A stretch of 64,000 bases of DNA from assembly GCA_030649135.1 (NCBI GenBank), contig JAUSGI010000004.1, forward strand, positions 34,089-98,088, read 5' to 3'. The notes under the pieces were generated by a model, which was given only the letters and a program-made list of their open reading frames with translations, had not been told where the DNA came from and did no database searches. The stretch is from a bacterium. GTDB taxonomy: Bacteria > Patescibacteriota > Minisyncoccia > Phycocordibacterales > Zambryskibacteraceae. How positions within the stretch are numbered: the stretch's first letter is position 1; each line of letters opens with the position of its first letter. A program made the position numbers and the translations under genes. Shown here one piece after another: positions 43,933-60,716 of the stretch.

Positions 43933-45258
43933 TCAGCTGTTCTTGTGCCACCCAACAAGCCTGTCAGAAATATTTGTAATACTCCCGGCTCCCATAAAAA
44001 GTAAGACATCCCCATTAGCAACCTCATTTTTAATTGTATGGAGTACATCTTTGAAATTTCTCACAAATCTAGTGGGTTGAGAAAGGGCAATTTTTTGGGC
44101 CAGACTTTTCGCGCCTCGATTTTTTTTAGAATCCGATTCGCGGCCCAGAACCGTATAAGTTTCGAGGATTATCACTTGGTCAGCTTCGTGGAAGGCCTTA
44201 GCAAAATCCGAAAAAAGTAAGGATAGACGTTCCGCTAGATGTGGCTGGAATATAACCCAAATTTTAGCTTTAGGAAATTTTTCTCTGGCACCGGATAATG
44301 TTGCTTTAATTTCCGTCGGGTGATGTGCATAATCATCGTAAATCTTCGCTTTTCTATATATACCGCGGTACTCGAATCTGCGCCACGTTCCCATAAATCT
44401 AGAAAATACCTTGTCTCGAACCAAAACTGGAATACCTAGAAAACTTCCCAATGTATCACAAGCCATTGCGTTTGAATGATTATGTGCTCCCGGAATTTTC
44501 AAGAGGGATTTTACTTTTGCTGCTCGTGCTCCTTGCCGATCATAATATGCTATCTTTGTCTTGGTCTTTAATTGTAACGATGCAAGATTTTTGTCTTCGT
44601 GGTTCAATACCAGATACCCATTCTCCTTCACCCTGCTGATAAAAGTACGGAAGGCTTTTTTAATATTTTCGAACGTCTTATAAAACTCAAGATGCTCCCG
44701 GTCAATATTGGTAATAATAGCTGCAAATGGAGTGTAATGAAGAAACGAGCCGTGGAACTCATCTGCCTCCAAAACAAGCCATTCTGACTTTCCCTTCCGA
44801 AAATTAGAATCACCAAACGCCTTTAGTCTCGTTCCCACTATGATAGTGGGGTCAAAGCCGGCTTTCAGAAGCATCAATCCTACTAACGCTGTCGTTGTGG
44901 ACTTTCCATGAGCGCCGGCGACTGCGATTGTCTTATAATTTTTCGTCAGCTCGCCAAGCGCTTCGGCGTAGGAAAATTGTGGAATTTTGAGTGACGTTGC
45001 CTTTTTACGTTCGGAATTTTCTTTTTTAACAGCGACACTATAAATCACACGCGAAACATCAGGACTAAGCCAGTTAGCGTTATGGAGGCCAGTATGTATT
45101 ACCGCACCATGACGAATTAAATTATTGGTGATAGGTGAACGAATAGCATCGGAGCCGGTAACATGCCAACCTTCCGAAAGATACCACTGTGCCAAAGCAG
45201 AGACACCAATACCACCAATCCCGACAAAATGTACTCTCCGGTTTTTTGCTTGGCTCAT
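43933..45258 (-). CDS. murC: UDP-N-acetylmuramate--L-alanine ligase
   Basis: VHFVGIGGIGVSALA N-terminal Mur ligase motif, central GTNGKTTT-like P-loop (GAHGKSTTT); start moved to MSQAKNRR because the ORF-track N-terminus translates the adjacent tRNA. Confidence 0.85.
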   Translation of the reverse strand: MSQAKNRRVHFVGIGGIGVSALAQWYLSEGWHVTGSDAIRSPITNNLIRHGAVIHTGLHNANWLSPDVSRVIYSVAVKKENSERKKATSLKIPQFSYAEALGELTKNYKTIAVAGAHGKSTTTALVGLMLLKAGFDPTIIVGTRLKAFGDSNFRKGKSEWLVLEADEFHGSFLHYTPFAAIITNIDREHLEFYKTFENIKKAFRTFISRVKENGYLVLNHEDKNLASLQLKTKTKIAYYDRQGARAAKVKSLLKIPGAHNHSNAMACDTLGSFLGIPVLVRDKVFSRFMGTWRRFEYRGIYRKAKIYDDYAHHPTEIKATLSGAREKFPKAKIWVIFQPHLAERLSLLFSDFAKAFHEADQVIILETYTVLGRESDSKKNRGAKSLAQKIALSQPTRFVRNFKDVLHTIKNEVANGDVLLFMGAGSITNISDRLVGWHKNS

Positions 45259-45268
45259 AGATAACGTG

Positions 45269-45342
45269 TCCACCCTCTTGGATTCGAACCAAGGACCCCA
45301 GAGGTATAAGCTCTGTGCTCTAACCAGCTGAGCTAAGGGTGG
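45269..45342 (-). tRNA. tRNA-Ile(UAU) (no encoded CCA; C1:G72)
   Basis: cloverleaf: acceptor CCACCCT/AGGGTGG, D-stem GCTC/GAGC, anticodon stem CAGAG/CTCTG with loop CTTATAC (anticodon TAT), T-arm CTTGG-TTCGAAT-CCAAG. Confidence 0.7.
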
Positions 45343-45370
45343 TATCAACACAATATCTCAAAATAGCGGT

Positions 45371-47584: not shown

Positions 47585-48268
47585 TCAGTACGGGAAGTAT
47601 CCCCGTGTATAGAACAAAATCCTGTCCGGCATGGCCTTGTCCGCATTCGCTAAGAGGTACTTCTCGAGGGCTCCCGCCGTATTGCAGACGGAAGAGTCTT
47701 TGATGCAGAACTCATGGACCCAGGTCATGCCACCGTCGCTGAAGGCGACATGCGTTGCCGTGCCGGGTATGTCATGCTCGAGGGCGCCACGCGCGTCGAG
47801 ACGTCCGCCAGCGGACATCTCGTCCATGTCTTTCTTGCTCATCCGCAGAGACATGTTCACCTGAAGCCAGCCATCAGGGCTGGTATAGGCGAACCAGTGG
47901 AACTTCTCGCCATTGTACCAACCGACGCCCCAGCCGACCGACCTGTCGAGAGCTCGACCTTTGTCATCGTGGGTCTCGAAGGCAAGGAACTGATACCTTA
48001 CCCAGGGGTGCAGTTGGGGTGCCAATGCCCGGAGCCGTTGGTCTTGCAGGTCCATGATAATGGTGTCGTTGCGCGCCTTCTCGGTAGGGGTGAGCTCCGG
48101 TGCCGTCTCGAGTTGAGCGGCATTTGCCGAGGCAGCATTCGCCCGGGGGGCGGCTGCCCGTATGACCGGTTCGGGCTGTGGCGACGGCGGTGTTGAGCTG
48201 ATACTTTGGTGCACTACGACTGTGAGTAGGCCTAAGCTAACAAGCAGTGCGCCACGCGACAGTGTCAT
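47585..48268 (-). CDS. G+C-rich secreted hypothetical protein (227 aa)
   Basis: signal peptide + Pro/Ala-rich linker; compositional anomaly; terminator hairpin CCCCACCCTCC-CGG-AGGGTGGGG downstream (47540..47565). Confidence 0.4.
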   Translation of the reverse strand: MTLSRGALLVSLGLLTVVVHQSISSTPPSPQPEPVIRAAAPRANAASANAAQLETAPELTPTEKARNDTIIMDLQDQRLRALAPQLHPWVRYQFLAFETHDDKGRALDRSVGWGVGWYNGEKFHWFAYTSPDGWLQVNMSLRMSKKDMDEMSAGGRLDARGALEHDIPGTATHVAFSDGGMTWVHEFCIKDSSVCNTAGALEKYLLANADKAMPDRILFYTRGYFPY

Positions 48269-48547: not shown

Positions 48548-48793
48548 TTAGTTTTTAATCTCAAAGACTTTTCTTTTCGACGTGGCGCCAGAGATAAGTC
48601 GTACTTGAGAGTGTGGAACCTTGAAGTGCTCTGCGATAAGTTTCGTAATGGCTTGGTTCGCCTTGCCTTCCGCCGGCCTTTCTTTAACCGAGACGGTATA
48701 CCAATCTTCCGCGTCCGGCATGAGTTTCAATGGCGGAGGAATAACTTTATTTTCTTTTGCGTTTGGCTTGGCTTTTACAAAAATTCTGGTCAT
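48548..48793 (-). CDS. DUF167 (YggU-like) protein
   Basis: 81 aa, ...AEGKAN.A...L....V....V.L.SG..S..K.. pattern. Confidence 0.55.
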   Translation of the reverse strand: MTRIFVKAKPNAKENKVIPPPLKLMPDAEDWYTVSVKERPAEGKANQAITKLIAEHFKVPHSQVRLISGATSKRKVFEIKN

Positions 48794-48801
48794 TCAATTT
48801 C

Positions 48802-48830
48802 CTTATTCTCCTATTCGAGCGAATTAGAGA
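48802..48830. promoter_or_regulatory. operator-like inverted repeat copy 1 (TCTCCTATTCG-AG-CGAATTAGAGA)
   Basis: one of 4 near-identical copies; lies between ArsR gene stop and DUF167 gene start. Confidence 0.5.
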
Positions 48831-49074
48831 TATATTTTGAGATGTGGTGGGGTTGCGAGGGGAGTCGGTACCACATTTGAAGGCCCCTTTGTTCTTTCTC
48901 CACAATATCCACTGCGGCCAGCACATGGAGATGTTTGGAAGTAGCCTTGAATGAGAGTTTGATATGCTCGGCGATGTCCCCGACGGTAGCTTCCTTGCTC
49001 TTTTTCAAATATTTAATAATAGTCAGGCGTCTCTGATTGGCTAAAGCTTTAAGTAGTCTTTCGAGATTTTTCAT
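48811..49074 (-). CDS. ArsR/SmtB-family transcriptional regulator
   Basis: LKALANQRRLTIIKYL...ATVGDIAEHIKLSFKATSKHLHVL wHTH signature. Confidence 0.7.
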   Translation of the reverse strand: MKNLERLLKALANQRRLTIIKYLKKSKEATVGDIAEHIKLSFKATSKHLHVLAAVDIVEKEQRGLQMWYRLPSQPHHISKYISNSLE

Positions 49075-49097
49075 ACCTATATTGTAAACTGCTTTGG

Positions 49098-49135
49098 CTT
49101 ATTCTCCTATTCGCGCGAATTAGAGAATAGATTTG
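49098..49135. promoter_or_regulatory. operator-like inverted repeat copy 2 (perfect core ATTCGCGCGAAT)
   Basis: 24 bp upstream of ArsR-family gene start, in divergent region with 49172..49447. Confidence 0.5.
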
Positions 49136-49171
49136 GATGATTTGATGATAAAATAAGGGAGGAGGTGTCAT

Positions 49172-49447
49172 ATGGATGAAGGTGAGCAGGCAACCGAGTT
49201 CTGGTTGGACAAGAATCTCAGTTGTACCGAGTTCATCAAGGCGTTTGAGTCTCACTTTCAGGGAGGTCGGGTCGAAAGCCTATCCTTGGTGCGGGTTGCC
49301 AAGCCGGGGTACATGCTTTTCCATCTGAGTGTGCCGCTCGAGAGAAAAGGGGAGCTCCTCGTGTTTCTCCATGAGTACGCCGAGACACGCGACGCCGACA
49401 GCGATTGGAAGACGGCGGGCGTCCATCCATTCAATCTATTTTCATAA
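49172..49447 (+). CDS. small hypothetical protein, paralogue of 50949..51242
   Basis: shared EF(I/V)KAF..(H/Y)F.GG motif and near-identical upstream RBS context (GAGGAGGTGT.ATATG); G+C-richer. Confidence 0.35.
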   Translation: MDEGEQATEFWLDKNLSCTEFIKAFESHFQGGRVESLSLVRVAKPGYMLFHLSVPLERKGELLVFLHEYAETRDADSDWKTAGVHPFNLFS

Positions 49448-49501
49448 CCACGCGTCGGACGGAGCATCGCGCTCCGTCCGACGCGGTTTTGTTTTTAGTA
49501 A

Positions 49502-50350
49502 TTATAGATTGCTGGGATTTGCAGGGTTTGGAGAGTGCGGAGATTTTCTTCCCACGATATAACCAAGTACTCCACCCACGAGAAGGAGAGCTGCCATCAA
49601 TATTATTTTAGTATCGAGATTTTTTTGTGGAGTAGATGAAGTAGGTGACGCGGTGGCATAAACTACCATGTTGCCTGTGTTTGGTTCAGTCGCACCATTT
49701 CCCTTAACACTCCTGATGATATTTGTATCGTAATATTTTATCCCCTTAACGACAGAAAGATTCTCTTTGACATACCCACCTTCGAAACAATCTCCCTTGT
49801 TGGAAATGAGAATGGCCATAGCATCTGTATTGGGAATTCCATATCCCTCAAAGATATGAGGTTGATCTTCGGCACAGCCACGGAAGTCCAGTTTGGCTAC
49901 TTCTTTATTGTCTTGAGTAAGAGTGGCGCGGAATTCAGTCCAATATTTCTCACCATTCTCAATGCGTTCGGAAAGGACTTCGACACGAACAGCAATATTA
50001 TTATTTTTTAGACTGACACTACCGAGATATGGAAGACTTTGGTAAGTATCTGTAATAAATTGACTGTACTTTTGTTCCCCACTTTCACCAGAGAAGAATT
50101 GTTGGAATACCTCGTCACAAGTTTTCACCTCAACGTCTTTGTTTGTGGCGAGGGAAATCGAATGAATAATAGACGGGCATCCTTTCCCACCCATATCACT
50201 TTCAAGATAATAGACTGAATTGTCCGAAGCTTTATAGGCAATTTGAGAAAGGTATGTTGGCCCACCTACAGTGGCCAAGACCTGCTCGCTTGAAATTAAG
50301 AGTAATAATGTGGCCAAGGAAAAAGATAACAATATATAATTTTTATTCAT
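49502..50350 (-). CDS. secreted hypothetical protein with C-terminal TM anchor
   Basis: signal peptide, C-terminal hydrophobic helix + basic tail. Confidence 0.4.
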   Translation of the reverse strand: MNKNYILLSFSLATLLLLISSEQVLATVGGPTYLSQIAYKASDNSVYYLESDMGGKGCPSIIHSISLATNKDVEVKTCDEVFQQFFSGESGEQKYSQFITDTYQSLPYLGSVSLKNNNIAVRVEVLSERIENGEKYWTEFRATLTQDNKEVAKLDFRGCAEDQPHIFEGYGIPNTDAMAILISNKGDCFEGGYVKENLSVVKGIKYYDTNIIRSVKGNGATEPNTGNMVVYATASPTSSTPQKNLDTKIILMAALLLVGGVLGYIVGRKSPHSPNPANPSNL

Positions 50351-50398
50351 ACCATAATGATAACATCTGGGGCTTTGTTTTATATAGGATTGGTTCGG

Positions 50399-50436
50399 CT
50401 TATTCTCCTATTCGAGCGAATTAGAGAATAGATTTG
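50399..50436. promoter_or_regulatory. operator-like inverted repeat copy 3
   Basis: ~50 bp upstream of 49502..50350 start. Confidence 0.45.
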
Positions 50437-50502
50437 TATAAATAGAAAATCGGGTTCCGCGAGGCGCGGAACCCGATTCGAATCGTCGGCCAGTCTTCTA
50501 TG

Positions 50503-50859
50503 CTACAGGACGGTCCACTCGTCTGGGTCGGGCTGCTTGAAGCGCCCAGCGAAAGGGCCATCTGGCCGCCGCATGGCGTGCTGTTTGTGGGGAATGACGT
50601 GTTCCCCAAGCGCGCGAAGAAGCTCGTGCGGGGAACTCGCATACCCGGCGCTGACTTTCCGCTCGAAGCGTCGCCCAAGGTGCAGGACGAATGCTTCGGA
50701 GTTGCCCATCTTGATATCATCGTCCTCTTCCCAGATGAACACTCTTCGCTTTACCGTGGGGTTGCCCGGCACTGGGTCGACACCTACATAGGCATCGACG
50801 ATATACCCCAGTACCTCACCTTTTCCCAACCAATCGTAGAAGCCGATCTCGTTGGCCAT
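50503..50859 (-). CDS. G+C-rich ORFan (118 aa)
   Basis: compositional anomaly; hairpin AAATCGGGTTCCGCG-AGG-CGCGGAACCCGATT downstream. Confidence 0.3.
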   Translation of the reverse strand: MANEIGFYDWLGKGEVLGYIVDAYVGVDPVPGNPTVKRRVFIWEEDDDIKMGNSEAFVLHLGRRFERKVSAGYASSPHELLRALGEHVIPHKQHAMRRPDGPFAGRFKQPDPDEWTVL

Positions 50860-50948
50860 GTGGCCTCCCGGCGCGCCTGAATTTCATTCCTCTCATATTA
50901 TACCATATATCAATATATTATACAAGTAGATAAGGTGCTCATTTTTTA

Positions 50949-51242
50949 GTGATAAGGTATGAGAGGAGGTGTGATATGAGAGATGATATGCGGGTGAGCG
51001 AGTTCAGATTAGATGAAGATTTCGACCGTGACGAGTTCGTAAAGGCGTTCAAGACCTACTTCGAGGGAGGTGATGCCAAAGATCTGGAAGTTGTTCCCGA
51101 CGCGATTTTGTTTTATAAAGGACGAGTGTCGCTTATTCTACTATTCGCACGAATTAGAGATGTAGAGGGGGGGGATTGGGTTGACAATTCAAATAATATA
51201 TCATACACTTTTGAAAGAGCCACATGCGTGGCTATGCTCTAA
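50949..51242 (+). CDS. small hypothetical protein (paralogue of 49172..49447), C-terminal part overwritten by operator-repeat copy 4
   Basis: N-terminal 60 aa alignable to 49172 product; repeat copy at 51132..51160 lies inside the reading frame. Confidence 0.3.
   Translation: MIRYERRCDMRDDMRVSEFRLDEDFDRDEFVKAFKTYFEGGDAKDLEVVPDAILFYKGRVSLILLFARIRDVEGGDWVDNSNNISYTFERATCVAML
51132..51160. promoter_or_regulatory. operator-like inverted repeat copy 4 (variant core ATTCGCACGAAT)
   Basis: sequence match to copies 1-3. Confidence 0.4.
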
Positions 51243-51270: not shown

Positions 51271-51951
51271 ATGATGGTAATCAGGGGAGGCATCCCCGCG
51301 ATCGTGCGAAACGATGCTGGTTGCTACGAAGGCAACCTAGTGTCGTACTTCCAGATCCTCTGGAACCACGCACAGAACCTCAACAACCCGTACCACAACT
51401 TCCGGCACATCTGCCACGTCCTGTGGTTGTGCCACGAGGCGTGCCTGTACTACACGAAGTACTACCCGAGCGAGCTGACATTGCGGCAGAAGAGGAATCT
51501 ACTCATCGCAGCGCTTTTCCACGACTTCGATCACACCGGCAAGTCGGGACCCGACTGGATGAACATCGCGATAGCGATGAGGGCCATCGATCGGTTCCTT
51601 CTGCCGGAGGACCGTCCGTACCGCATGGACATCTCCCGTCTGGTTTCCTTCACGGAGTATCCGTACGCCGTGGGTCCAGAGGATCTCGACCTCTCGGCAC
51701 TCATCCTCCGCGATGCGGACATGGGCCAGGCGTTCAGCGTGGCCTGGATCCAGCAGGTCATCTTCGGTCTTGCTGCCGAGTGGGGCAAGACTCCGCTCGA
51801 GGTGGTCAAGATGCAAGGGCCGTTCCACGAGAAGGTTCGTTTCCACACCAAGTGGGGGCAGAAGATGTTCCCCGCTTCGGATGTGAGAACGAAGATCAAT
51901 GAGGCCACTGAGCTTCTCGAACTGCTCACCACCGAACCCGTTCTGGCCTGA
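51271..51951 (+). CDS. G+C-rich HD-domain phosphohydrolase-like protein
   Basis: H...H (FRHICH), HD (FHDFDH), distal D (RDAD) spacing typical of HD superfamily. Confidence 0.45.
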   Translation: MMVIRGGIPAIVRNDAGCYEGNLVSYFQILWNHAQNLNNPYHNFRHICHVLWLCHEACLYYTKYYPSELTLRQKRNLLIAALFHDFDHTGKSGPDWMNIAIAMRAIDRFLLPEDRPYRMDISRLVSFTEYPYAVGPEDLDLSALILRDADMGQAFSVAWIQQVIFGLAAEWGKTPLEVVKMQGPFHEKVRFHTKWGQKMFPASDVRTKINEATELLELLTTEPVLA

Positions 51952-51955
51952 GACA

Positions 51956-52009
51956 TCGCCCCGCCTGATGAATCGCCCCGCGGCTCATCAGGCGGGGCGA
52001 TTTTATTTT
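51956..52009 (+). terminator. rho-independent terminator
   Basis: long GC hairpin CGCCCCGCCTGATGA...TCATCAGGCGGGGCG + TTTTATTTT. Confidence 0.55.
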
Positions 52010-52019
52010 ATAGAGAGTA

Positions 52020-52049
52020 GGGTTTGTAAGTGCCCCAAATTTGTGGGAT
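52020..52049 (+). promoter_or_regulatory. conserved TTTGT-N12-TTTGTGGGAT element, copy 1 (upstream of dinB); extended -10 TGTATAAT at 52076..52083
   Basis: three co-oriented copies (52020, 53323, 54521), each immediately 5' of a gene. Confidence 0.45.
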
Positions 52050-52089: not shown

Positions 52090-53322
52090 ATGGCGCGAGA
52101 AAAGACCATTTTACATATGGATGGAGATGCCTTCTTCGTCGCCTGTGAGGTCTCGAAGAATCCCAAGCTCAAGGGTAAAGCAGTGGTGACAGGCGAGGAG
52201 CGCGGGATAGTCTCGGCCCTCTCATACGAAGCGAAGGCGCTTGGGGTAGTTAGAGGCATGCCGATATTTTCCTTGCGCAAATCGTTTCCAAGTGTCTTAG
52301 TGCTGCCGGGAGATTATGCTTGTTACGCGCGACTCTCGGGAGAAATGTTTGACATCGTGAGGAGGTATGCCGACGAGGTCGAGGAGTACAGTATCGATGA
52401 GTGTTTCGCCGATCTCTCCGGCCTAGATAAGCCGCTTAAAATGAGTTATAGAGAAATTGCGGAGCGGATAAAGAAAGAAATCGAAAGCGAACTTAGACTC
52501 TCTGTCTCTATCGGGCTCGGGCCCTCAAAGGGGCTCGCCAAGGTGGCGTCGAAGTGGCAGAAGCCCAATGGTCTTACAGTGATAGAAGCAAAGACGGCCC
52601 CAGATTTTCTCAAAAAGACTCCGATTGAGAAAATCTGGGGCATCGGCCCGCGCACAGCAGAGTTTCTAAAGAAGAAAGGAATAGGAACTGCCGGCGAGTT
52701 CGCCTCGCGTGAACTCGCCTGGGTCAGAAAGGAACTTTCCAAACCTTACGAAGTTATTTGGAGAGAGCTCAACGGTGAATACATCATGGAGTTAGACCCC
52801 TTGCCGAAGACTGTCTATTCCTCTGTCCAGAAGACAAGGACATTTCACCCGGCGACAGGGGACAAAGTCTTTCTCCTCTCCGAACTTTCTAAGCATGTGG
52901 AAGAAGCGTGCCGCAAGGCGAGGTACTACCACCTCGTACCGAAGAAGTTTTCTTTTTTCCTCAAGAGCCAGAGCTTCAAATATTTCTCTTACAATATAAA
53001 TCTTCCCTCGCCCACTAATGCTCCGGAGACGCTGGTCGCTCTAGTCCGTAAACATTTCAAAGAAGTTTGGAGAGAGGGAATACTCTTCCGTACCACTGGA
53101 GTGGTGTTGCAAGAGCTTGCTCCGAGAGCGGCAATGCAGGGAGATTTGTTCGGAGGCTCCGATAGAGCCGGTAAGTTTGAAAAGATTCATGGTCAGATCG
53201 ACGCTCTGGAAGAGAAGTTCGGCAAGTCGGTAGTCTATCTCGCCTCCACTCACCAGTCCCTGAAGCGTAAAAAGGTCGGCACCGACTCCGACGACCTCGA
53301 CCGCAACCTGCTGTTTTTGTGA
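52090..53322 (+). CDS. dinB: DNA polymerase IV (Y-family, DinB)
   Basis: HMDGDAFFVACE N-term (catalytic D..D/F), SIDE motif (YSIDECFADL), little-finger domain; start set at MAREKT. Confidence 0.85.
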   Translation: MAREKTILHMDGDAFFVACEVSKNPKLKGKAVVTGEERGIVSALSYEAKALGVVRGMPIFSLRKSFPSVLVLPGDYACYARLSGEMFDIVRRYADEVEEYSIDECFADLSGLDKPLKMSYREIAERIKKEIESELRLSVSIGLGPSKGLAKVASKWQKPNGLTVIEAKTAPDFLKKTPIEKIWGIGPRTAEFLKKKGIGTAGEFASRELAWVRKELSKPYEVIWRELNGEYIMELDPLPKTVYSSVQKTRTFHPATGDKVFLLSELSKHVEEACRKARYYHLVPKKFSFFLKSQSFKYFSYNINLPSPTNAPETLVALVRKHFKEVWREGILFRTTGVVLQELAPRAAMQGDLFGGSDRAGKFEKIHGQIDALEEKFGKSVVYLASTHQSLKRKKVGTDSDDLDRNLLFL

Positions 53323-53352
53323 GGGTTTGTTTTAAGCCAAAATTTGTGGGAT
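53323..53352 (+). promoter_or_regulatory. conserved TTTGT-N12-TTTGTGGGAT element, copy 2 (upstream of ATPase gene)
   Basis: see copy 1. Confidence 0.45.
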
Positions 53353-53372
53353 TATTTTGTGCAAGTATATTT

Positions 53373-54518
53373 ATGGATGTAGAAATAAAGAAACAACCAA
53401 AAACCAGCATTACTGAGGATATTGATTGTGTAATTAAGCTTGAGCCACTTACAATTTTTGCTGGGAATAATAATTCAGGTAAGACTCATTTGATTAACGC
53501 TATAGGGAAAAAACTGTCTGAGAATGACATAAATGTTGTGCATATCCCAAGTGAGAGGATACTTGTAGAGAATGAATTGAAGACAGGAGCAGAAAAGGAT
53601 CCATTAAGAGCGGCTCTCGGTGATTTGATTGAGTTTGCTTTTGATGCCGACAGTTCAATCTCTAGTGATGTTTCTGATATCTCAGTAATACTTCCTGCTG
53701 AATTTATACAATATGGTATTGAGAATATAGATATTTCGGTAAAGACAAACACTCTCACTAACGATGAATATAAAAAAGCTTTAAAAGATGCTCACATAAA
53801 AAAGCTTATCGATTCCATAGTTATATCTGACAAATACTGTGGAGTTGAGGACATAAGTCCATCAAATGTGGGTCAAGGAACACAAAGAATGATTGTCGTT
53901 TCTCTAATTAGATATCTACAGCGTAAAAAATTTGAGAAGGATGGTCGAACAAGTAAACCAACATATATTATTTTTGAAGAACCAGAGATATACCTTCACC
54001 CAAAAATGAAGGCAACCTTGTATGCACTAATTCAAGCCATAGCTAATGATGGAAGATTGAATACTAAAGTTATCTTAACTACCCACGACCCATACTTTAT
54101 TGATATGGGTAGAAATGCAAAAATTTATCGGGTCTTTAGGGATCCTTTGAAGAATTTTTCTACACAATTAATGGATGTACAAAAAGACGTATTACTGTAC
54201 CCATCTTCTGCAGAAATAAACTATATTGTATTTGAGCAGGTTAGCCCTACTTATTTACTTGAATTGTATGAAAGTAAAAAACAAGAAACTGAATTAAAGC
54301 TTGGAAAGAAGTTGGGAGGTCTTAAGTATTATGAATTCGATCTAGCTTTATTTAATAAAATTGGAGAACCTCAATCTTCTACTGATGATGATGGACATCC
54401 CGTTACGTTTATAACTCGGATAAGGCATGATATGGCACACCCCTCTACCTCCATATTAGATTCTTTTGAGTCTAGAGGAAAGGAAGCTATTGAAAAATTA
54501 AGAAATTACAAAGCTTAA
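53373..54518 (+). CDS. ABC/SMC-type (AAA_21/OLD-like) ATPase
   Basis: Walker A GNNNSGKT, Walker B IIFEEPEIYLHP, H-loop ILTTHDPYF; start reset to MDVEIKK (ORF track 53319 would overlap dinB stop and the repeat element). Confidence 0.7.
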   Translation: MDVEIKKQPKTSITEDIDCVIKLEPLTIFAGNNNSGKTHLINAIGKKLSENDINVVHIPSERILVENELKTGAEKDPLRAALGDLIEFAFDADSSISSDVSDISVILPAEFIQYGIENIDISVKTNTLTNDEYKKALKDAHIKKLIDSIVISDKYCGVEDISPSNVGQGTQRMIVVSLIRYLQRKKFEKDGRTSKPTYIIFEEPEIYLHPKMKATLYALIQAIANDGRLNTKVILTTHDPYFIDMGRNAKIYRVFRDPLKNFSTQLMDVQKDVLLYPSSAEINYIVFEQVSPTYLLELYESKKQETELKLGKKLGGLKYYEFDLALFNKIGEPQSSTDDDGHPVTFITRIRHDMAHPSTSILDSFESRGKEAIEKLRNYKA

Positions 54519-54520
54519 AT

Positions 54521-54550
54521 CTGTTTGTAAAACTCTAAAATTTGTGGGAT
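54521..54550 (+). promoter_or_regulatory. conserved TTTGT-N12-TTTGTGGGAT element, copy 3 (upstream of HNH gene, followed by RBS GGAGG)
   Basis: see copy 1. Confidence 0.45.
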
Positions 54551-54565
54551 ATTTGGAGGACAAAC

Positions 54566-55753
54566 ATGGAAGATGAAATAAAGCGATATTTTGAGGGCAT
54601 AGATCTTGATATTCGGAAGCAATCTCGGGGCTATTCACGCTTCATGGATCAGAAAGTTGCTCCAGATGTCCTGTCTTTTATTGCTGATTCTGTAGTCAAT
54701 TCTATGGATGGAAAGGAGCCTGGTACCACCTTTACCATTGGTGATGTATGGGAGTTTCCTTACTTTGTAAAAAATACAGAAGCTGTATTCGGGAAACCCT
54801 CTCCAGAAAATGAAACCACGGAATCTGAGTATGATAAATTTATCGCCCAGCCCTTAAAAACCCTTGCTTTTGCTAAGATTCTGGAAGAAGAAAAAGTTGG
54901 AGGGAAAAATACATATAAGGTTCTAAGGCCCGATATTTTGGAGTATATTTCTCAAAGCGAGAAAAACGCCTTTATATTTTTAGTCCTCTATATTGAAAAG
55001 GTTTTATCTGACAGTGGATTCATAAAAAACTTCGAGGAATATAGGGAAAAGGCGCAGTCAAATAAACTAAAACCAGAAGATCTTGAAATATTAAAAAAAA
55101 GATTCCAAAAATTCATTTTGGGCAATACCAATATAAATGGCGTAATAGAAATAAATAGAGTATTTCCGAAAGTTCTAAATCCTTATGCAGCTTCACATCA
55201 AATTCCAGGAATAGAAAGGGGGCACATAACTTCTGGTAGATTTATTTACCCAGATCTCATGTATAACCGAGAAAATTTTAGGGACATTGGAAAAGACAAG
55301 ACTGTAAGTAGACAAGAAGCGTTAAGAGAAATTACTCAGCAGCCAGAAGTTGTTGAATATCGAGTTCAAAAAGCAAAAAGTATTATACGGCGCCATCATT
55401 CAAGTAGTGAGGTTAAGGATAGCTTGGCAGTAGGCGAAGCGACTCAGGTTCATCATATTTTTTCAGACCATGAATTTCCTGAAATATCTGATTATATTGA
55501 AAACCTTATTTTACTAACACCTCAGCAGCACAACACAAGAGCTCATCCAAAAAATAAAACAAATACCGTTGACGCAGAGTATCAAAGGGAATGCTTGTTA
55601 TCTAAAATTGATTCGATTGAGATGTCCGTAAGTAAGCGAGACAGCCTGTATTCTAAGGAAAGATTTATACACGTTGTGAATATTGGCTATGAACTTGATC
55701 TCTCGACAAATACTAGTTTTGAAGAATTGAGAGATATTATTCGAAAGAGATAG
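54566..55753 (+). CDS. HNH endonuclease-domain protein (C-terminal HNH, ~280-aa unknown N-terminal region)
   Basis: VHHIFSDHEFPE...ENLILLTPQQHNTRAH: H-N-H spacing; start reset to MEDEIKRYF after RBS. Confidence 0.6.
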   Translation: MEDEIKRYFEGIDLDIRKQSRGYSRFMDQKVAPDVLSFIADSVVNSMDGKEPGTTFTIGDVWEFPYFVKNTEAVFGKPSPENETTESEYDKFIAQPLKTLAFAKILEEEKVGGKNTYKVLRPDILEYISQSEKNAFIFLVLYIEKVLSDSGFIKNFEEYREKAQSNKLKPEDLEILKKRFQKFILGNTNINGVIEINRVFPKVLNPYAASHQIPGIERGHITSGRFIYPDLMYNRENFRDIGKDKTVSRQEALREITQQPEVVEYRVQKAKSIIRRHHSSSEVKDSLAVGEATQVHHIFSDHEFPEISDYIENLILLTPQQHNTRAHPKNKTNTVDAEYQRECLLSKIDSIEMSVSKRDSLYSKERFIHVVNIGYELDLSTNTSFEELRDIIRKR

Positions 55754-55757
55754 TTTT

Positions 55758-58277
55758 CTAGCGATTTATGCCAAAAAAGAATACTGAATTATTGTCGATG
55801 TTTAAAGATCTGGTACCGTGATTCCTTGCTACTCGATAAAATTGGGTGAATTCGTCTGTTCCAAAATAATCAAGGTCTTTTAGAGTTATCTTAGCTCCGG
55901 GTTCTTTTAGGGTGAGGATTGCCACAGACCCATCAACAAGCGTGTTCTCTGGTAAAAATGAAGCTCTGGGAGCATAGGTCAGGTTTGGCACCAAGACGCT
56001 ATTTTCTTTATTCCAAAACTTAGAGATTGATAACCCGTCTAACGAATCAACATAAGAGTCATAATTTGGAATGTTCAGGATCTCATTTCGTCCGATATTT
56101 CTTGATTTCAATATTCTTATTTTCCCCTTGTTTTTTGTTATCTTTTTTGTAATTTGTCGATCTCTGTAAGATGTAAATATATTGAATCGAAGTTTTTTTG
56201 CAACGAAGTCAAAGAATTCATTTCTGTACACCAACCAGTAAGGAAAATCTTTCGAACAAATATAAGATTGATCTTTATAACCAATTTCGTTTTTTACATA
56301 AGACTCAACGAGAGTCCGGGCCCCTTTATTACGAGTATTGATAATCAAACTGATTGTCTCAATCTTCACACCCCTGAACCCTTTTTCTCCATAGTCTGTG
56401 ATTTTTTCAATGGCAAATGACGAAGCAAGTTCTCTTGTTTTGTTAAATTCGGGTGCTGATAGAAAACTTTTGGGAATAATAAGACCTACGGTATCTCCTT
56501 GTTGCATTGCTTTCTCGAGAAAAAAAGAAAATAGATTATTTGTTTCGGCATTATATTTATTCTTCTTATAAGTGTTTAGGAGAACTTTATTTTCAGATAT
56601 ATCTCCGAATGGTGGATTGCCAATAACGATATCGTATCTTTTAGATTGGCCAAATAAATTAGTCTCTCCATGCAATAGAAAATCTGCGTTAATTAAATTG
56701 ATCTTGATATTTTTTGGAACATCAAGTTTTTTTAGTAAAAGTTTAAGAATCTCAATTGCATTTTTGTCGATATCAACTACATCAATAGTTACCTCCTTAA
56801 CTGTTTTATATTTTTGAACAAGAAGCGGGAGAAAATTACCAGCACCGACTGATGGTTCTAATATAGAAAGTTTTTCAAACTTTGATACATCAGGAAGATC
56901 TTTTACTATAGTGAAGCAAATGTCCTGTCTGGTGTAATACGCGGCGTGCTGAAGACGTTGGGCATTTGAAAGCTCGACGATTTTAGCTAATTCGGGGTAG
57001 CTAAAATTTTGCATATTCTCTTCGAGAAAAGTCTTAATATTTTCTTCTATATTAAGCCTTTCATCTTGGATTAATTTTTTTATTTGGATTTCATTATTTT
57101 CAACATTTCTAAGCTTTGACTTGATATTTTTAGCTATACCGTTGAATATAATTGTGGGGACTGCCTCACCTAGTGATTGTCTTATATTTATCTCTTCTTT
57201 CTTGAGAATTTTCCTCTTTTCTTCATTTGACAACTTATTTAATTCATCAAGCGGAGTAGATACCCAATTAAAAGAATCTGGTACGGACATCATTCTCATT
57301 AACTCTCTAATACTAAATACCCTGTTATCTTTTGGATGAATGGTTGCTTGGCTCGCAAATATATCGTTTCGGGTATGTATACAAGGAGCAACTTTATCCC
57401 AATAACATCGTGAGTATTTATCTCCGTTCTTGTTTTCATTGTGTACAATCTTTCCGTTTATGATTTGGTGAGGTCGCTTTTTGGCATCAGTATTATCAAA
57501 CGCAGATTGTCCCTCCTTGGTATTCTCAATCCAAGAAAGCATATGCTCAGCGTACGGACGAAAATTGTGATAGATGTCCTTTTTATCAATCTCACCCATA
57601 TTTTTAAGAGATGAAAGGTTGCCTATCGTATCACGCAAGGTACCACCATCTTTCAATACTGGCATTAGATCAAGAGGTGTAACTTCTTGAATATCTTTTC
57701 GTACTCCTATAACGAGTGTTCGGGTTCTACTCGATGGATTACCATAATCTTTGAAATTGATTACTTGATAGTGGATGTTATATTTACCTCCAAGATTTAC
57801 TTCAATTGCTTCACGAATTTGTTTTTGTTTCTTATCGATGTCAGTGCAGAGTGTAGATAGAAAAGCCCTCACATTCTCAAATATAAAAACTTTCGGTCTA
57901 ATTTCATCTACAATTTTTATTGATTCAACGACAAGAGAATTTCGTTCAAGCTCATCCCTTTTTTTGTGATTGGCTACAGACATACCCTGACATGGGGGTG
58001 TTGCCAATAAAACTTCAACTTCTTTTAAACCTTGCTTTGATTTCCAGAGATCAATTTCTGAAAATATTTTTTCTTGAGTGGCTTTTTTTGTGATGTCATC
58101 AGCAATATAACCACTTGGATATAAACACTTATTATTATGTCTTTGCACATCCAAACGTCTGTTCATAAGTTCAACAGTTGCAACACAATCAAATCCTTCT
58201 TTAGAAAAACCATAGCAACCAACGCCGGCGCTACTGAATAAACTTATATATGTTAATTTTTTATTTTGGTTTTTCAT
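55758..58277 (-). CDS. bifunctional DNA methyltransferase: N-terminal C5-cytosine MTase fused to C-terminal gamma-class N6-adenine MTase (Eco57I/TaqI-like)
   Basis: C5 motifs I (LFSSAGVGCYG), IV (PPCQGMS), VI (ENV), VIII (SRTRT), X (GEAVP); then adenine-MTase motif I (LEPSVGAGNFL) and IV (NPPFGD) + TaqI-C-like TRD. Confidence 0.8.
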   Translation of the reverse strand: MKNQNKKLTYISLFSSAGVGCYGFSKEGFDCVATVELMNRRLDVQRHNNKCLYPSGYIADDITKKATQEKIFSEIDLWKSKQGLKEVEVLLATPPCQGMSVANHKKRDELERNSLVVESIKIVDEIRPKVFIFENVRAFLSTLCTDIDKKQKQIREAIEVNLGGKYNIHYQVINFKDYGNPSSRTRTLVIGVRKDIQEVTPLDLMPVLKDGGTLRDTIGNLSSLKNMGEIDKKDIYHNFRPYAEHMLSWIENTKEGQSAFDNTDAKKRPHQIINGKIVHNENKNGDKYSRCYWDKVAPCIHTRNDIFASQATIHPKDNRVFSIRELMRMMSVPDSFNWVSTPLDELNKLSNEEKRKILKKEEINIRQSLGEAVPTIIFNGIAKNIKSKLRNVENNEIQIKKLIQDERLNIEENIKTFLEENMQNFSYPELAKIVELSNAQRLQHAAYYTRQDICFTIVKDLPDVSKFEKLSILEPSVGAGNFLPLLVQKYKTVKEVTIDVVDIDKNAIEILKLLLKKLDVPKNIKINLINADFLLHGETNLFGQSKRYDIVIGNPPFGDISENKVLLNTYKKNKYNAETNNLFSFFLEKAMQQGDTVGLIIPKSFLSAPEFNKTRELASSFAIEKITDYGEKGFRGVKIETISLIINTRNKGARTLVESYVKNEIGYKDQSYICSKDFPYWLVYRNEFFDFVAKKLRFNIFTSYRDRQITKKITKNKGKIRILKSRNIGRNEILNIPNYDSYVDSLDGLSISKFWNKENSVLVPNLTYAPRASFLPENTLVDGSVAILTLKEPGAKITLKDLDYFGTDEFTQFYRVARNHGTRSLNIDNNSVFFFGINR

Positions 58278-58281
58278 GAAT

Positions 58282-58896
58282 TTATAGTGTTCTAATTATT
58301 TTTTCTACTATACCCCTAATCTCAACTTGTTTTCGGTAAAAAGGTTTGAGGTTTTTATTTGCAGGCTGTAATCTGATTTTCCCTTTTTCCTTATATATTT
58401 TTTTAAGTGTTACTTGATTGTCGTCAATGATGGCCACGGCAGTTTGTCCATTATCAGCTACGTTTTGAGATCGAATGACAACAATATCTCCATCAAAGAT
58501 TCCATCCTCAATCATACTGTCTCCTTTAACCTGTAGCGCATAGTGTTGAAAAGGTAGTTTGATATCACTTCTCGGGACGGTAATTGTTTTTTCGTTTATT
58601 TCCATTGCTTCAATAGGCTCTCCAGCTGCAATACTACCAAGCAGTGGAATTTCTACGGTCGATTTTTCTTTCATCGTAGAAATAGTTCTTGGTTGATTTT
58701 CTTCTTTTGTGAGTAAACCCTTTTTTTGTAAGTGTTTAATGTGGAAATGGGCTGTTGAGACGGAAGCAAGTTTAAAATTTTGCTGTATTTCTACTAAAGA
58801 GGGAGCATACCCATTCTTTTTTTGTGATTGCTTCACAAAATCTAGAACCATTTTTTGTTTTTTAGTAAGCATAGATATTGACATACTATTTATCAC
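58282..58896 (-). CDS. lexA: LexA repressor (HTH + S24 autopeptidase), translationally coupled to downstream MTase
   Basis: LexA DNA-binding wHTH, Ala-Gly cleavage site (SIAAGEP), catalytic Ser (GDSM) and Lys (TLKK); 4-nt gap to MTase start. Confidence 0.85.
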   Translation of the reverse strand: MINSMSISMLTKKQKMVLDFVKQSQKKNGYAPSLVEIQQNFKLASVSTAHFHIKHLQKKGLLTKEENQPRTISTMKEKSTVEIPLLGSIAAGEPIEAMEINEKTITVPRSDIKLPFQHYALQVKGDSMIEDGIFDGDIVVIRSQNVADNGQTAVAIIDDNQVTLKKIYKEKGKIRLQPANKNLKPFYRKQVEIRGIVEKIIRTL

Positions 58897-58997
58897 GGAG
58901 GTATACTTCCATTATAGAAGGAAAATAGAAGGTCTACAAGACCTACTTATCCACACCTCCTATATAAAGATCGAATTAGTAATAGTTCTAAAAAAAT

Positions 58998-59204
58998 ATG
59001 GCAAAACCTAAATACATAGCAAAGTCTGGTCAGCCTTGGGCTCCAGCTGAAGTAAAACAGTTGAAAAGCATGGGAGGCAGGGTGCCTACTGGCGTTATTG
59101 GTTTGAAACTTCAGAGACCAGTTGCAGGAGTACGGGCAAAAGCTCAAGAAATCGGCATGAGTTTGAAGCCGGTAAATAAATCGCCACGATCAAAGCTTAA
59201 ATAG
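58998..59204 (+). CDS. small basic hypothetical protein (68 aa)
   Basis: divergent from lexA; shares upstream block CTTATCCACACC.CTATAT.AAAGAT with the second lexA copy's divergent region. Confidence 0.3.
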   Translation: MAKPKYIAKSGQPWAPAEVKQLKSMGGRVPTGVIGLKLQRPVAGVRAKAQEIGMSLKPVNKSPRSKLK

Positions 59205-59322
59205 GTAAACCTGAGCAAAAGGAATGGTAGTAAGTCGCAAGAGCGGTTATCGCGGTATAATTTATTTATGTCTGAATATTACAACCAAAACAGAATAGAA
59301 TCTTGGAATTACATATCCTTGT

Positions 59323-59562
59323 ATGAACCAAGTTGAACGAGATTTAACATATAGATTGGATGCACTGAAAGCTACTTGTAATCAATACGGTCTACAGAGT
59401 TATGAGTGCAAGACTTCTATGGAGATATGGCAAGATCAACATGACTGGAATGTAATGTATGAAAAATATGGTGATTACTTTGGTATAGGCTCTTTGACTG
59501 CCTTATTAATTGTTTTCTTCTATTATTTGTGGTTAAGTTCACTAAATTTAAGTAATAAATAG
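59323..59562 (+). CDS. small membrane hypothetical protein
   Basis: C-terminal TM helix; weak. Confidence 0.25.
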   Translation: MNQVERDLTYRLDALKATCNQYGLQSYECKTSMEIWQDQHDWNVMYEKYGDYFGIGSLTALLIVFFYYLWLSSLNLSNK

Positions 59563-59563
59563 T

Positions 59564-60043
59564 ATGGATAAAAATAATACAAATGAATTGAGTGCTGTTT
59601 TATCTGGAGTAGCCGGGGAGTATTTTGTTGCCGGTGAGTTATCGAGAAGAGGATTTCTTGCTTCGATCACCCTTAGAAATACTAAAGGGGTTGATATCCA
59701 ATGTTCAAATGGAGACGCTAGTAAATCAGTCAGCATACAAGTAAAAACAAATAAGGGTTCATCTAGAAAATGGGTTATGAACCGCAAGGCCGAGGATTAT
59801 TATGCTGATAATCTTTTCTATATTTTTGTGAATCTAAATGACAATAAAAAATCTCCAGATTATTTTGTGGTACCGAGTAAAGTCGCTGCGGAATATACAA
59901 AAAAGAATCATATTGAATGGCTAGGAAGGCCAAGACGTGATGGTAATCCTCACAAAGATAACGACATGAGAAAATTTGTTGACTTAGAAGAAAGGTACTT
60001 AAATCGCTGGGAATTGCTTGGGCTGGATATTCAAATTATATAG
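59564..60043 (+). CDS. PD-(D/E)xK-like nuclease-fold protein (hypothetical)
   Basis: GEY...GVDI...SIQVKT arrangement matches E...D...(E/Q)xK restriction-endonuclease-like core. Confidence 0.3.
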   Translation: MDKNNTNELSAVLSGVAGEYFVAGELSRRGFLASITLRNTKGVDIQCSNGDASKSVSIQVKTNKGSSRKWVMNRKAEDYYADNLFYIFVNLNDNKKSPDYFVVPSKVAAEYTKKNHIEWLGRPRRDGNPHKDNDMRKFVDLEERYLNRWELLGLDIQII

Positions 60044-60110
60044 GGGTAAATTTGAATCTGACGGAATTGGAAAAGATTAGAAATAAAATGGCAAAATTTA
60101 AAATAAATCC

Positions 60111-60515
60111 ATGAACACCTACAACTGGTACTCACAATTAATTAAACCACTGTGGGCACCGCCGGCAGAAGTTTTCGGCCCAGTATGGACCGTGCTATAC
60201 GTCATTATCGCCATCTCTTTCGGCCTCGTATTCTACAGAGTGTGGAAAGGGGAGTTGCCCAAGATGGTTGCATTGCCATTTGCGCTGAACCTCGTCTTCA
60301 ACTTCGCCTTTACCCCCATTCAATTTGGACTCAAGAATAATCTGTTCGCCGCGCTTGATATCCTGCTTGTGCTTGCGACTCTCGTCTGGGCGCTTTACCT
60401 CCTCTGGCGCACTTCGAGCAAACTCCGCTCTGTTGTCTATGCCAATATCCCGTATCTGTTGTGGGTGACATTTGCGACCTATTTGCAATTAACCATCACT
60501 TATCTAAACAGATAA
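60111..60515 (+). CDS. tspO: TspO/MBR tryptophan-rich sensory protein
   Basis: 5-TM 134-aa protein, W-rich N-terminus (NWYSQLIKPLWAPP..FGPVWTVLY). Confidence 0.7.
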   Translation: MNTYNWYSQLIKPLWAPPAEVFGPVWTVLYVIIAISFGLVFYRVWKGELPKMVALPFALNLVFNFAFTPIQFGLKNNLFAALDILLVLATLVWALYLLWRTSSKLRSVVYANIPYLLWVTFATYLQLTITYLNR

Positions 60516-60578
60516 TGTAACTCGGCGGGTTCAGCTTAATGGGAAATGGCTTAAAAATATGCTAAATTGACGCTTACT

Positions 60579-60668
60579 GGAGCCGTCGCATAGTGGTCTA
60601 GTGCGCCTCACTGCTAACGAGGTAGGGTCTAAAAGCCCTCGAGGGTTCAAATCCCTCCGGCTCCGCCA
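60579..60668 (+). tRNA. tRNA-Ser(GCU), class II with long variable arm, CCA encoded
   Basis: acceptor GGAGCCG/CGGCTCC, 3-bp D-stem, anticodon loop CTGCTAA, variable arm GGG..CCC, T-arm GAGGG-TTCAAAT-CCCTC, discriminator G, CCA. Confidence 0.85.
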
Positions 60669-60716
60669 GATGACCAAGTTTGAACCGAAGCAAAATAAGG
60701 ATATATTACCCAAATT

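Follow-up and report, generated by a model that had tools for sequence, protein, structure and literature searches.

An inverted repeat bracketing a small ArsR/SmtB-family gene in Patescibacteria: a putative autoregulatory unit with additional sites

A 64,000-nucleotide stretch from a genome of the Zambryskibacteraceae (Patescibacteriota; assembly GCA_030649135.1, contig JAUSGI010000004.1, positions 34,089 to 98,088), hereafter called the window, contains four copies of an imperfect inverted repeat, two of which bracket a minus-strand gene (48811-49074) coding for an 87-amino-acid winged-helix protein of the ArsR/SmtB family, a putative repressor. The same arrangement of gene and sites recurs in many lineages of the Patescibacteria, and the repeat is best regarded as the cognate DNA site of this protein, both together forming an autorepressing unit with extra sites elsewhere, a reading to which we assign a probability of roughly 0.6. 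The anatomy of the unit, its conservation, its promoter geometry and the fold of the protein are observed directly, and from these we infer that the protein binds the site and acts as a repressor, and also what the 3' and distal copies do.

Results

The repeat and the encoded protein

A pattern search of the window returned the 24-mer TCTCCTATTCG-NN-CGAATTAGAGA without mismatches at 48807-48830 (copy 1), 49103-49126 (copy 2) and 50404-50427 (copy 3), and with one mismatch (TCTAC) at 51137-51160 (copy 4), all on the plus strand. The chance expectation for the window is 0.01 matches, and four copies were obtained in 0 of 100 shuffles, which rules out chance or low complexity as the source of the repeat. 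The initial annotation had recognized these four copies, but with start coordinates lying 5 nt too low, which correspond to the start of a longer sequence shared by the copies, cTTATTCTCC...GAGAATAG. The perfect 12-bp core it had described for copy 2 was recovered (ATTCGCGCGAAT, 49109-49120). The spacers of copies 1-4 are AG, CG, AG and CA, and the view that the cores differ in nothing but these spacers applies to copies 1-3, while copy 4 carries an additional C>A exchange in the left arm. As had been proposed, copies are located upstream of three minus-strand genes, namely a DUF167 gene (start at 48793), the ArsR-like gene (start at 49074) and a gene for a secreted protein of 282 amino acids (start at 50350). 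Read in the direction of these genes, the site is the 28-mer TTCTCTAATTCGCGCGAATAGGAGAATA, and no further copies with up to 8/28 mismatches are present elsewhere in the 64-kb window. In the 28-mer scan, copy 1 (48804-48831, minus strand), the putative 3' operator, overlaps the last codons and the stop codon of the ArsR-like gene, and copy 2 (49100-49127, minus strand), the putative 5' operator, lies 25 nt upstream of its ATG, or 28 nt from the start codon if measured from the 24-mer.

The 87-amino-acid protein belongs to the ArsR/SmtB family by sequence and by fold. It matches the Pfam family HTH_5 (E 1.1e-9, 38.4 bits; cut-off 22) and the NCBIfam model NF033788 (70.1 bits; cut-off 55), and scores 50.6 bits with the model for SdpR-type autorepressors, below the cut-off of 100. 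The AlphaFold model (predicted local distance difference test, pLDDT, 85.4) consists of helices at residues 2-26, 31-38 and 42-54 and strands at residues 28-30, 59-63 and 66-70, followed by a C-terminal helix and tail of low confidence, the tail being disordered (pLDDT <50). Foldseek relates the model to SmtB, CzrA, CadC, NolR, HlyU and AspA (probability 1.0, template modelling scores of 0.64-0.69). A protein search yielded homologues in 292 clusters, which are 86-99 amino acids long in the motif-bearing loci and share a nearly invariant recognition helix, SFKATSKHL, in keeping with the invariant half-site of the repeat.

A possible metal- or stress-responsive function, as suggested in the initial annotation, is not supported. 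The protein contains no cysteine and no recognizable metal-site residues; in an alignment to Lmo1102, the segment KELCVCDIS corresponds to KEATVGDIA, so that ATVGD stands in place of the CVC site, and neither α3 (ELCVCD) nor α3N or α5 (DxHx10HxxE) ligands were recognized in it. The C-terminal region where an α5 site would be expected is variable among the homologues and poorly modelled. The protein thus offers no basis for metal sensing, and the term "metalloregulator" attached to these proteins in public records is unsupported.

Conservation of the gene and its sites

An exact-pattern scan with one genome per species found the motif in at least 119 genome blocks, nearly all of them from metagenome-assembled genomes (MAGs) of Patescibacteria, which represent many groups of the Parcubacteria/Paceibacteria, the Doudna-, Kerfeld-, Uhr- and Moranbacteria (ABY1 groups) and one Gracilibacteria MAG. 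In several MAGs it occurs in 3-4 separate blocks on several contigs. The flanks are unrelated between loci, yet some positions that had not been selected for are kept, namely yTAT before the motif, a CG spacer and A/T after it. In this motif-selected set, 31 of 130 copies among the matches listed directly adjoin a gene for a homologue of the 87-amino-acid protein, and a relaxed scan with the 28-mer showed nearly every homologue to have one copy just upstream and one at the stop codon; these gene-flanking copies are in sense orientation except in four loci (L033, L047, L073 and a weak match in L031).

Since these loci had been chosen by the motif, an independent set picked by the protein only was assembled from 4 look-ups and 80 metagenome loci. 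The 5' copy is present in 63 of 77 loci of this set, the 3' copy, overlapping or abutting the stop codon, in 55 of 77, and both in 50 of 74; 120 of the 123 copies are in sense orientation, and a shuffled control gave no match at up to 7 mismatches in 844 kb. Only 34 other copies occur in 452 kb. At 0-3 additional copies in the 10-20 kb surrounding the gene, the motif is not an abundant genome-wide repeat, an outcome that the initial annotation had named as one that would refute its reading. When the window was compared to all loci by blastn, dozens of matches spanned exactly from 48803/4 to 49126-34, i.e., the unit of motif, gene and motif. Within the Zambryskibacteria, the gene order ArsR-DUF167-x-x-RecG is conserved in three loci (L126-L128), and because this synteny with DUF167 and recG is kept, the unit is regarded as chromosomal and vertically inherited in this group, as judged from gene order. 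No homology was found between the 227-amino-acid gene of the window and the syntenic gene of L126. The connection of the motif with the ArsR-family gene and with autoregulation, originally drawn from the window, is thus strengthened by a gene bracketed in many lineages of the Patescibacteria and by a fixed operator-promoter geometry.

The consensus of the site is TCTCTAATTCG-NN-CGAAT-N4-GAATA. An unbiased logo shows invariant ATTCG..CGAAT together with conserved TCTCT and GAATA, i.e., the invariant blocks TCTCTAATTCG, CGAAT and GAATA, with the 4 nt between CGAAT and GAATA varying; a logo of this kind is typical of the sites of dimeric winged-helix proteins, as far as the sequences tell. Fully symmetric variants also occur (TTCTCTAATTCGCGCGAATTAGAGAA and TTCTCCTATTCG..CGAATAGGAGAA), of the L-L type in L191, L205, L073 and L144 and of the R-R type in L150, as expected from recombination or repair at the centre of a palindrome. 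In five loci (L010 at ~1300-1560, L079, L104, L058 and L065), the motif is located at the apex of a longer inverted repeat, CTCCCATCAAAAT ... AACTTTGATGGAAG, and in the first three of them it adjoins a conserved sequence of ~120 nt (…GGTCAGGGCAGCTTAAGGCTCTATATGAGCCGGACGCCC…), which has no Rfam match and may represent an undescribed RNA or a conserved gene end.

Promoter geometry and the copy at the 3' end

The distance between the 5' copy and the ATG peaks at 25-31 nt in the protein-selected loci, with a mode of 28. A candidate -10 box read from the window sequence, TACAAT (49081-49086, minus strand), is placed 13 nt after the operator and 6 nt before the ATG of the ArsR-like gene. Among 65 ArsR-upstream copies, a TAnnnT hexamer begins 13 nt downstream of the 28-mer in 15 cases and 16 nt downstream in another 16, and 22 of these 31 boxes carry a TG extension, giving TGnTAnnnT at 6-9 nt before the ATG. 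In 32 of the 65 copies, an open frame begins with an ATG at 4-10 nt from the box, as expected for a leaderless message, compared to 1 of 65 on the antisense side. This geometry of an extended -10 box and a nearby ATG implies that transcription of the arsR-like gene would start at an extended -10 promoter and yield a leaderless mRNA. The 5' site then covers about -55 to -28, thus lying over the -35 region, so autorepression appears as the best reading of its position. The motif itself was also tried as a σ70 promoter and rejected, its internal hexamers being poor. A simple scan for -10 boxes downstream of all copies pooled gave no peak above the antisense control; the peak emerged only with the ArsR-upstream copies analysed separately.

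At the other end of the gene, copy 1 provides the last codons of the ArsR-like protein (TCT AAT TCG CTC GAA TAG, coding for SNSLE*). The DUF167 gene (48548-48793, minus strand; Pfam DUF167, E 8.8e-21) follows directly after 10 nt, with the AGGAGA/AAGGA of copy 1 just in front of its start, and is probably co-transcribed with the ArsR-like gene. Two subfamilies of the protein end in two different registers of the motif, one with ...ISNS[LRFI]E* (stop within GAA TAG) and one with ...L* (stop within TCTC TAA), the C-terminal SNS[LRFI]E being conserved in the former. Because the C-terminal tail is disordered in the model, what is conserved at the 3' end of the gene appears to be the DNA site and not the peptide. 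In 61 loci with a neighbouring open reading frame (ORF) within 500 nt, the gene after the 3' copy is co-directional in 47 and convergent in 14. A Shine-Dalgarno function was rejected as the cause of the asymmetry of the site, AGGAGA being present in only 9 of 51 unbiased 3' copies, and because of this low number the Shine-Dalgarno-like look of the copies in the window seems to be lineage-specific.

Distal copies and their orientation

Copy 3 (50401-50428, minus strand) lies 50 nt upstream of the gene for the 282-amino-acid protein (49502-50350, minus strand), a candidate target which has a signal peptide, a C-terminal anchor and no family match; a TATATA sequence (50381-50386, minus strand) starts 14 nt after this copy. 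Copy 4 (51134-51161, minus strand) is a diverged distal copy with 3/28 mismatches; on its sense strand, no ORF follows directly. In the wider set of loci, distal copies precede genes for MsrA, a Mur ligase, NUDIX proteins, GrpE, MnmA, TfoX and many unknown proteins, and in one locus (L063) 10 copies of the same orientation are found within 3.8 kb, the majority in front of a small co-directional gene. A coherent regulon was sought and rejected, as a Pfam analysis of 62 downstream genes gave 63 unrelated families and clustering left 128 singletons; the extra sites are not a classical regulon. The sole recurrent neighbour of the motif apart from the ArsR-like gene is a family of cysteine-rich proteins of ~560-600 amino acids (MxxKxCQNCxxxFxIxxED...), often encoded in tandem (L018, L049, L069, L093, L097, L162, L165, L198 and L205).

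The copies are strongly polar. Between co-directional genes, the motif is in sense orientation in 53 cases and in antisense orientation in 5, and it is found between convergent genes in 19 and between divergent genes in 10 cases. This orientation along transcription, the frequent location right after stop codons and the excess between convergent genes would also suit an element acting in the transcript, such as an intercistronic or 3'-terminal RNA hairpin serving as a repetitive extragenic palindrome (REP)-like mRNA stabilizer, a processing site or a Shine-Dalgarno-sequestering structure, with the ArsR-like gene merely as its most conserved neighbour. The sense RNA folds into a 13-bp hairpin (-12.8 kcal/mol, z -4.1), and the variant seen in the window carries AGGAGA in its 3' arm, about 20% of the downstream genes starting 2-11 nt after it. 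However, the antisense RNA folds almost equally well (-11.5 kcal/mol), the natural variants GTAGA, GGTAGA and GCGA break pairs without compensation, AGGAGA is rare among the unbiased 3' copies, as mentioned above, and the 5' copy of the ArsR-like gene, being upstream of a leaderless promoter, is probably not transcribed at all; it is the primary sequence that is conserved and not the pairing. A scan of 47-53 kb against Rfam with E values up to 10 produced nothing relevant, and this result together with the uncompensated variants favours a site in the DNA, an RNA element appearing unlikely.

Polarity also brings to mind systems in which protein and site form a barrier to replication or transcription, like RTP and Ter, or a centromere, like that of AspA, and do not regulate genes. 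In Bacillus subtilis, the small winged-helix dimer encoded by rtp binds asymmetric sites (TerI-II) next to its own gene, a layout reminiscent of the one seen here, and the best structural match of the 87-amino-acid protein is the centromere-binding AspA. In addition, 83 of 101 loci show positive GC skew on the sense strand of the motif (83 versus 18), and distant genes are co-oriented with the motif in 77 versus 24 cases. Nevertheless, orientation tracks the adjacent genes (about 10:1) more tightly than skew or distant genes (about 3-4.6:1), and the window is itself an exception, its sense strand having negative skew. The copies are scattered over several contigs per MAG instead of forming one cluster, and no parA or parB genes adjoin the unit in the window or in loci L120-L128, where the neighbours are DUF167, small unknown genes and genes for HD proteins, rhodanese and LMWPc. 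A barrier or segregation function seems very improbable.

Probable duplication of the site, and the truncated paralogue

Copy 3 has 88% identity with copy 2 over a length of 56 nt, and the downstream flank TCCwTATAAAACAAA (TTTGTTTTATAwAGGA if read on the plus strand) is common to it and copy 4. Because copies 2, 3 and 4 have flanks in common, local duplication of an operator/promoter module is likely, and copy 4 is probably such a duplicated module of uncertain function. The earlier suggestion of a spreading palindromic unit is retained in this limited sense, whereas no signature of transposition was seen and collections of viruses and plasmids lack the motif, with 0 matches in IMG/VR and no blastn match of a 40-mer in PLSDB plasmids or INPHARED phages.

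Copy 4 lies close to a truncated gene. A gene of 91 amino acids without family match (49172-49447, plus strand) is oriented divergently from the ArsR-like gene, with copy 2 in the intergenic region between them, and is equipped with a strong ribosome-binding site (RBS) of its own and a terminator at 49451-49485. The ORF at 50949-51242 had correctly been recognized as its paralogue, the two having the RBS and the first ~45 codons in common (33% amino acid identity, E 1e-10). The paralogue is not overwritten by copy 4, as had been assumed; a deletion removed its 3' two-thirds and brought codon ~48 next to the tail of the gene's own terminator, CCGACGCGATTTTGTTTT, which is also the 3' tail of the terminator behind the intact copy at 49172-49447. 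The remnant (50967-51114, plus strand) thus consists of the RBS, ~45 codons, an internal deletion and the terminator tail (51097-51114), and copy 4 follows ~20 nt beyond this tail in former intergenic DNA. Because the deletion junction overlaps the flank shared by copies 3 and 4, the sequence suggests that illegitimate recombination duplicated the operator/promoter module.

Such events raise the question of whether the motif is itself a recombination site or cassette boundary, comparable to attC or pdif or acting as a conserved patch of homology, at which segments including the arsR-like gene are exchanged, duplicated or inverted. Two diverged units in one Doudnabacteria MAG (L050, 815-1140; L114, 1408-1733) are homologous only over motif, gene and motif (326 bp, 72% nucleotide identity) and have unrelated flanks, from which the unit can apparently be duplicated or acquired as a discrete module of 326 bp. 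The array of ten copies in L063, the GC mosaic of foreign-looking genes between the copies of the window, the symmetrized L-L and R-R variants and the resemblance of the site, read as 13-6-13, to the core sites of tyrosine recombinases point in the same direction. On the other hand, any conserved gene whose surroundings have been shuffled would show homology that stops at its boundaries. The ORFs scanned around the cluster (41.9-63.3 kb of the window) and most gene tables contained no integrase or recombinase, the ArsR-RecG synteny is stable within the Zambryskibacteria, the motif is missing from mobile elements, and no recurrent cassette other than the ArsR-like gene is bounded by motifs. The search for such cassettes gave three similar pairs of inter-motif segments, none of them informative (the duplicate contigs L139/L140, a HIT-like gene in L024/L114 and an unannotated stretch of ~87 residues in L006/L109). 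We consider a recombination site to be quite unlikely. An apparent inversion of the cassette in L142 is confounded by an insertion sequence-type transposase between recG and the unit.

Neighbouring genes

The region around the repeats is a GC mosaic, with genes of 56-64% GC in a background of ~45% GC. The four high-GC genes (47585-48268, 49172-49500, 50440-50880 and 51271-52000) each have a strong GGAGG RBS and a GC-rich terminator; one of them has a PDEase/HD-like match, and the other three matched no family. They alternate with the motif copies and, judged from composition, seem to have been acquired recently from a foreign source. A defence island of low GC content (31-40%; 53319-63280) adjoins the repeat region and codes for an AriA/OLD-like ATPase, a type II restriction endonuclease, a C5/N6 methylase fusion, LexA, MvaI/BcnI and a LexA-S24-N4/N6 methylase fusion. 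Restriction or toxin-antitoxin genes are likewise found next to the ArsR units of L063, L120, L122 and L126.

A second repeat, GTTTGT-N12-AAATTTGTGGGAT, is present at 52019-52049, 53322-53352 and 54520-54550, the three exact copies of its 13-mer not being attributable to chance at 0 mismatches. The copies are located at the starts of the genes for DinB, the AriA/OLD-like AAA_15 ATPase and the type II restriction enzyme; the dinB gene has TGTATAAT 6 nt before its ATG, which indicates a leaderless message. Homologues of LexA are encoded nearby (58282-58896, and the LexA-methylase fusion at 61415-63280), and the repeat could be an SOS/LexA box. Finally, a tRNA-Ile gene with the anticodon UAU (45268-45342), which is uncommon in bacteria, adjoins a Mur-ligase gene (43933-45351) just downstream of recG.

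Discussion

The unit of site, extended -10 promoter, leaderless arsR-like gene and second site may be viewed as an old chromosomal module of many lineages of the Patescibacteria. A dimer of the protein would bind to the core ATTCG-NN-CGAAT and to TCTCT and GAATA on its flanks, and at the 5' site it would occlude RNA polymerase and thereby repress its own leaderless transcript. The 3' site might control whether transcription continues into, or starts at, the gene that follows (DUF167 in the window), cooperate with the 5' site or alternatively act as a roadblock. Extra copies would place lineage-specific accessory genes under the control of the same protein, in the window the gene for the 282-amino-acid secreted protein and possibly a transcript in the direction of the 118-amino-acid gene, and new copies would arise through local duplication of the operator/promoter module. 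Because no recognizable ligand site is present in the protein, control probably depends on how much of the protein is present or on some partner, and not on metals.

The pairing of protein and site may be reflected in their co-variation, as proteins with the wing variant RSSQ are associated with TCATTCG/TTATTCG half-sites in 8 of 9 loci compared to 6 of about 60 elsewhere, which is suggestive although phylogenetically confounded. Several further observations weigh against a simple autorepressor with additional operators. A symmetric dimer site would not usually show a strand polarity of 53 versus 5, which points to some further function that depends on direction. Among the distal and 3' copies (n = 230), promoter or start-codon placement is only weakly enriched (22% of cases compared to 13-14% on the control side), and ~59% of them have no obvious regulatory placement; the genes downstream are functionally unrelated and not conserved between genomes (the 128 singleton families obtained by clustering). 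In 14 of 61 loci the 3' copy is present although the gene beyond it is convergent, and it therefore cannot serve only as an operator for a downstream promoter. Finally, a site centred near -41 would equally suit a class II activator, which makes activation an alternative to repression.

In its general features, the system resembles those of SmtB, CzrA, CadC and ArsR, which are of the same family and fold and act on 12-2-12 operators, i.e., imperfect inverted repeats with a 2-bp centre that overlap the regulator's own promoter. Unlike these proteins, the one described here is only 87 amino acids long and devoid of an α3 CXC motif, recognizable α5 ligands and any cysteine; furthermore, a second putative operator lies within the 3' codons of the gene, the mRNA is predicted to be leaderless, the site is conserved across many lineages of the Patescibacteria, and the extra targets are unrelated accessory genes instead of a gene for efflux or metallothionein. 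The system would thus work like an ArsR/SmtB autorepressor with a 12-2-12-type operator, outside the metal-sensing subgroup. Closer parallels in this respect are HlyU, NolR, PagR and SdpR, sensor-less or atypically controlled ArsR-fold dimers acting on AT-rich (pseudo)palindromes at several unlinked genes, as is putatively the case here; identity to these proteins is only about 30%, no sequestering partner of the SdpR kind was identified for the 87-amino-acid protein, and we know of no counterpart to either the bracketing sites or the site inside the 3' part of the coding sequence. AspA of the Sulfolobus plasmid pNOB8, the best structural match (root-mean-square deviation of 2.8 Å over 72 columns), is a similarly minimal protein of ~90 amino acids which binds a palindrome just upstream of its own gene, but it is followed by ParB and ParA genes, whereas the unit described here is chromosomal, syntenic with recG and accompanied by sites on several contigs.

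Long inverted repeats that are nearly invariant over deep lineages and served by one dedicated repressor are also known from CIRCE/HrcA (and from the NrdR boxes); CIRCE controls a conserved regulon (groE, dnaK), whereas here the regulator's own gene is the only conserved target. A single-copy gene flanked by a short palindrome that is also found elsewhere recalls REP/RAYT, but the flanked gene codes for an 87-amino-acid winged helix-turn-helix protein and not a Y1 transposase, the copies are direct instead of inverted, and there are few of them per genome instead of hundreds, with none in the other 61 kb of the window. Polar sites next to the gene of a small winged-helix protein are shared with RTP/Ter of B. 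subtilis, with binding being putative in the present case and no evidence placing the sites at a replication terminus. Integron attC sites differ as well, the present motif having a fixed sequence without GTTRRRY and no integrase among its neighbours. What distinguishes the unit from all these cases are the bracketing sites, the 3' site in the coding sequence, the conservation over many lineages and the polar but non-conserved extra sites, features of which the conservation across much of the superphylum and the second copy built into the 3' end of the regulator gene could not have been seen from the window with which the initial annotation had worked. No paper with the sequence in a relevant context or with an ArsR regulon from these bacteria was found in the searchable literature, and the gene-plus-sites unit is apparently undescribed.

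The ultra-small Patescibacteria, also known as candidate phyla radiation (CPR), make up a large share of bacterial diversity, are mostly uncultured, and have genomes of about 1 Mb with very few transcription factors; to our knowledge, almost nothing is known of their gene regulation. A conserved pair of protein and site with a consensus, a promoter context and a set of targets would provide an experimental handle on it, and the automatic annotation of these proteins as metalloregulators may be corrected. For the ArsR family, a gene bracketed by two sites, one of which encodes its last residues, with both polarized along transcription, poses a mechanistic question. One answer, possible although doubtful, is that the polar site of ~28 bp at both gene ends represents a portable control point, acting as an operator and/or as a protein-dependent polar roadblock. 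If true, new accessory genes would have been plugged into one master circuit run by a sensor-less ArsR-fold protein, which would amount to a minimal global regulatory or insulating system specific to the reduced genomes of the Patescibacteria.

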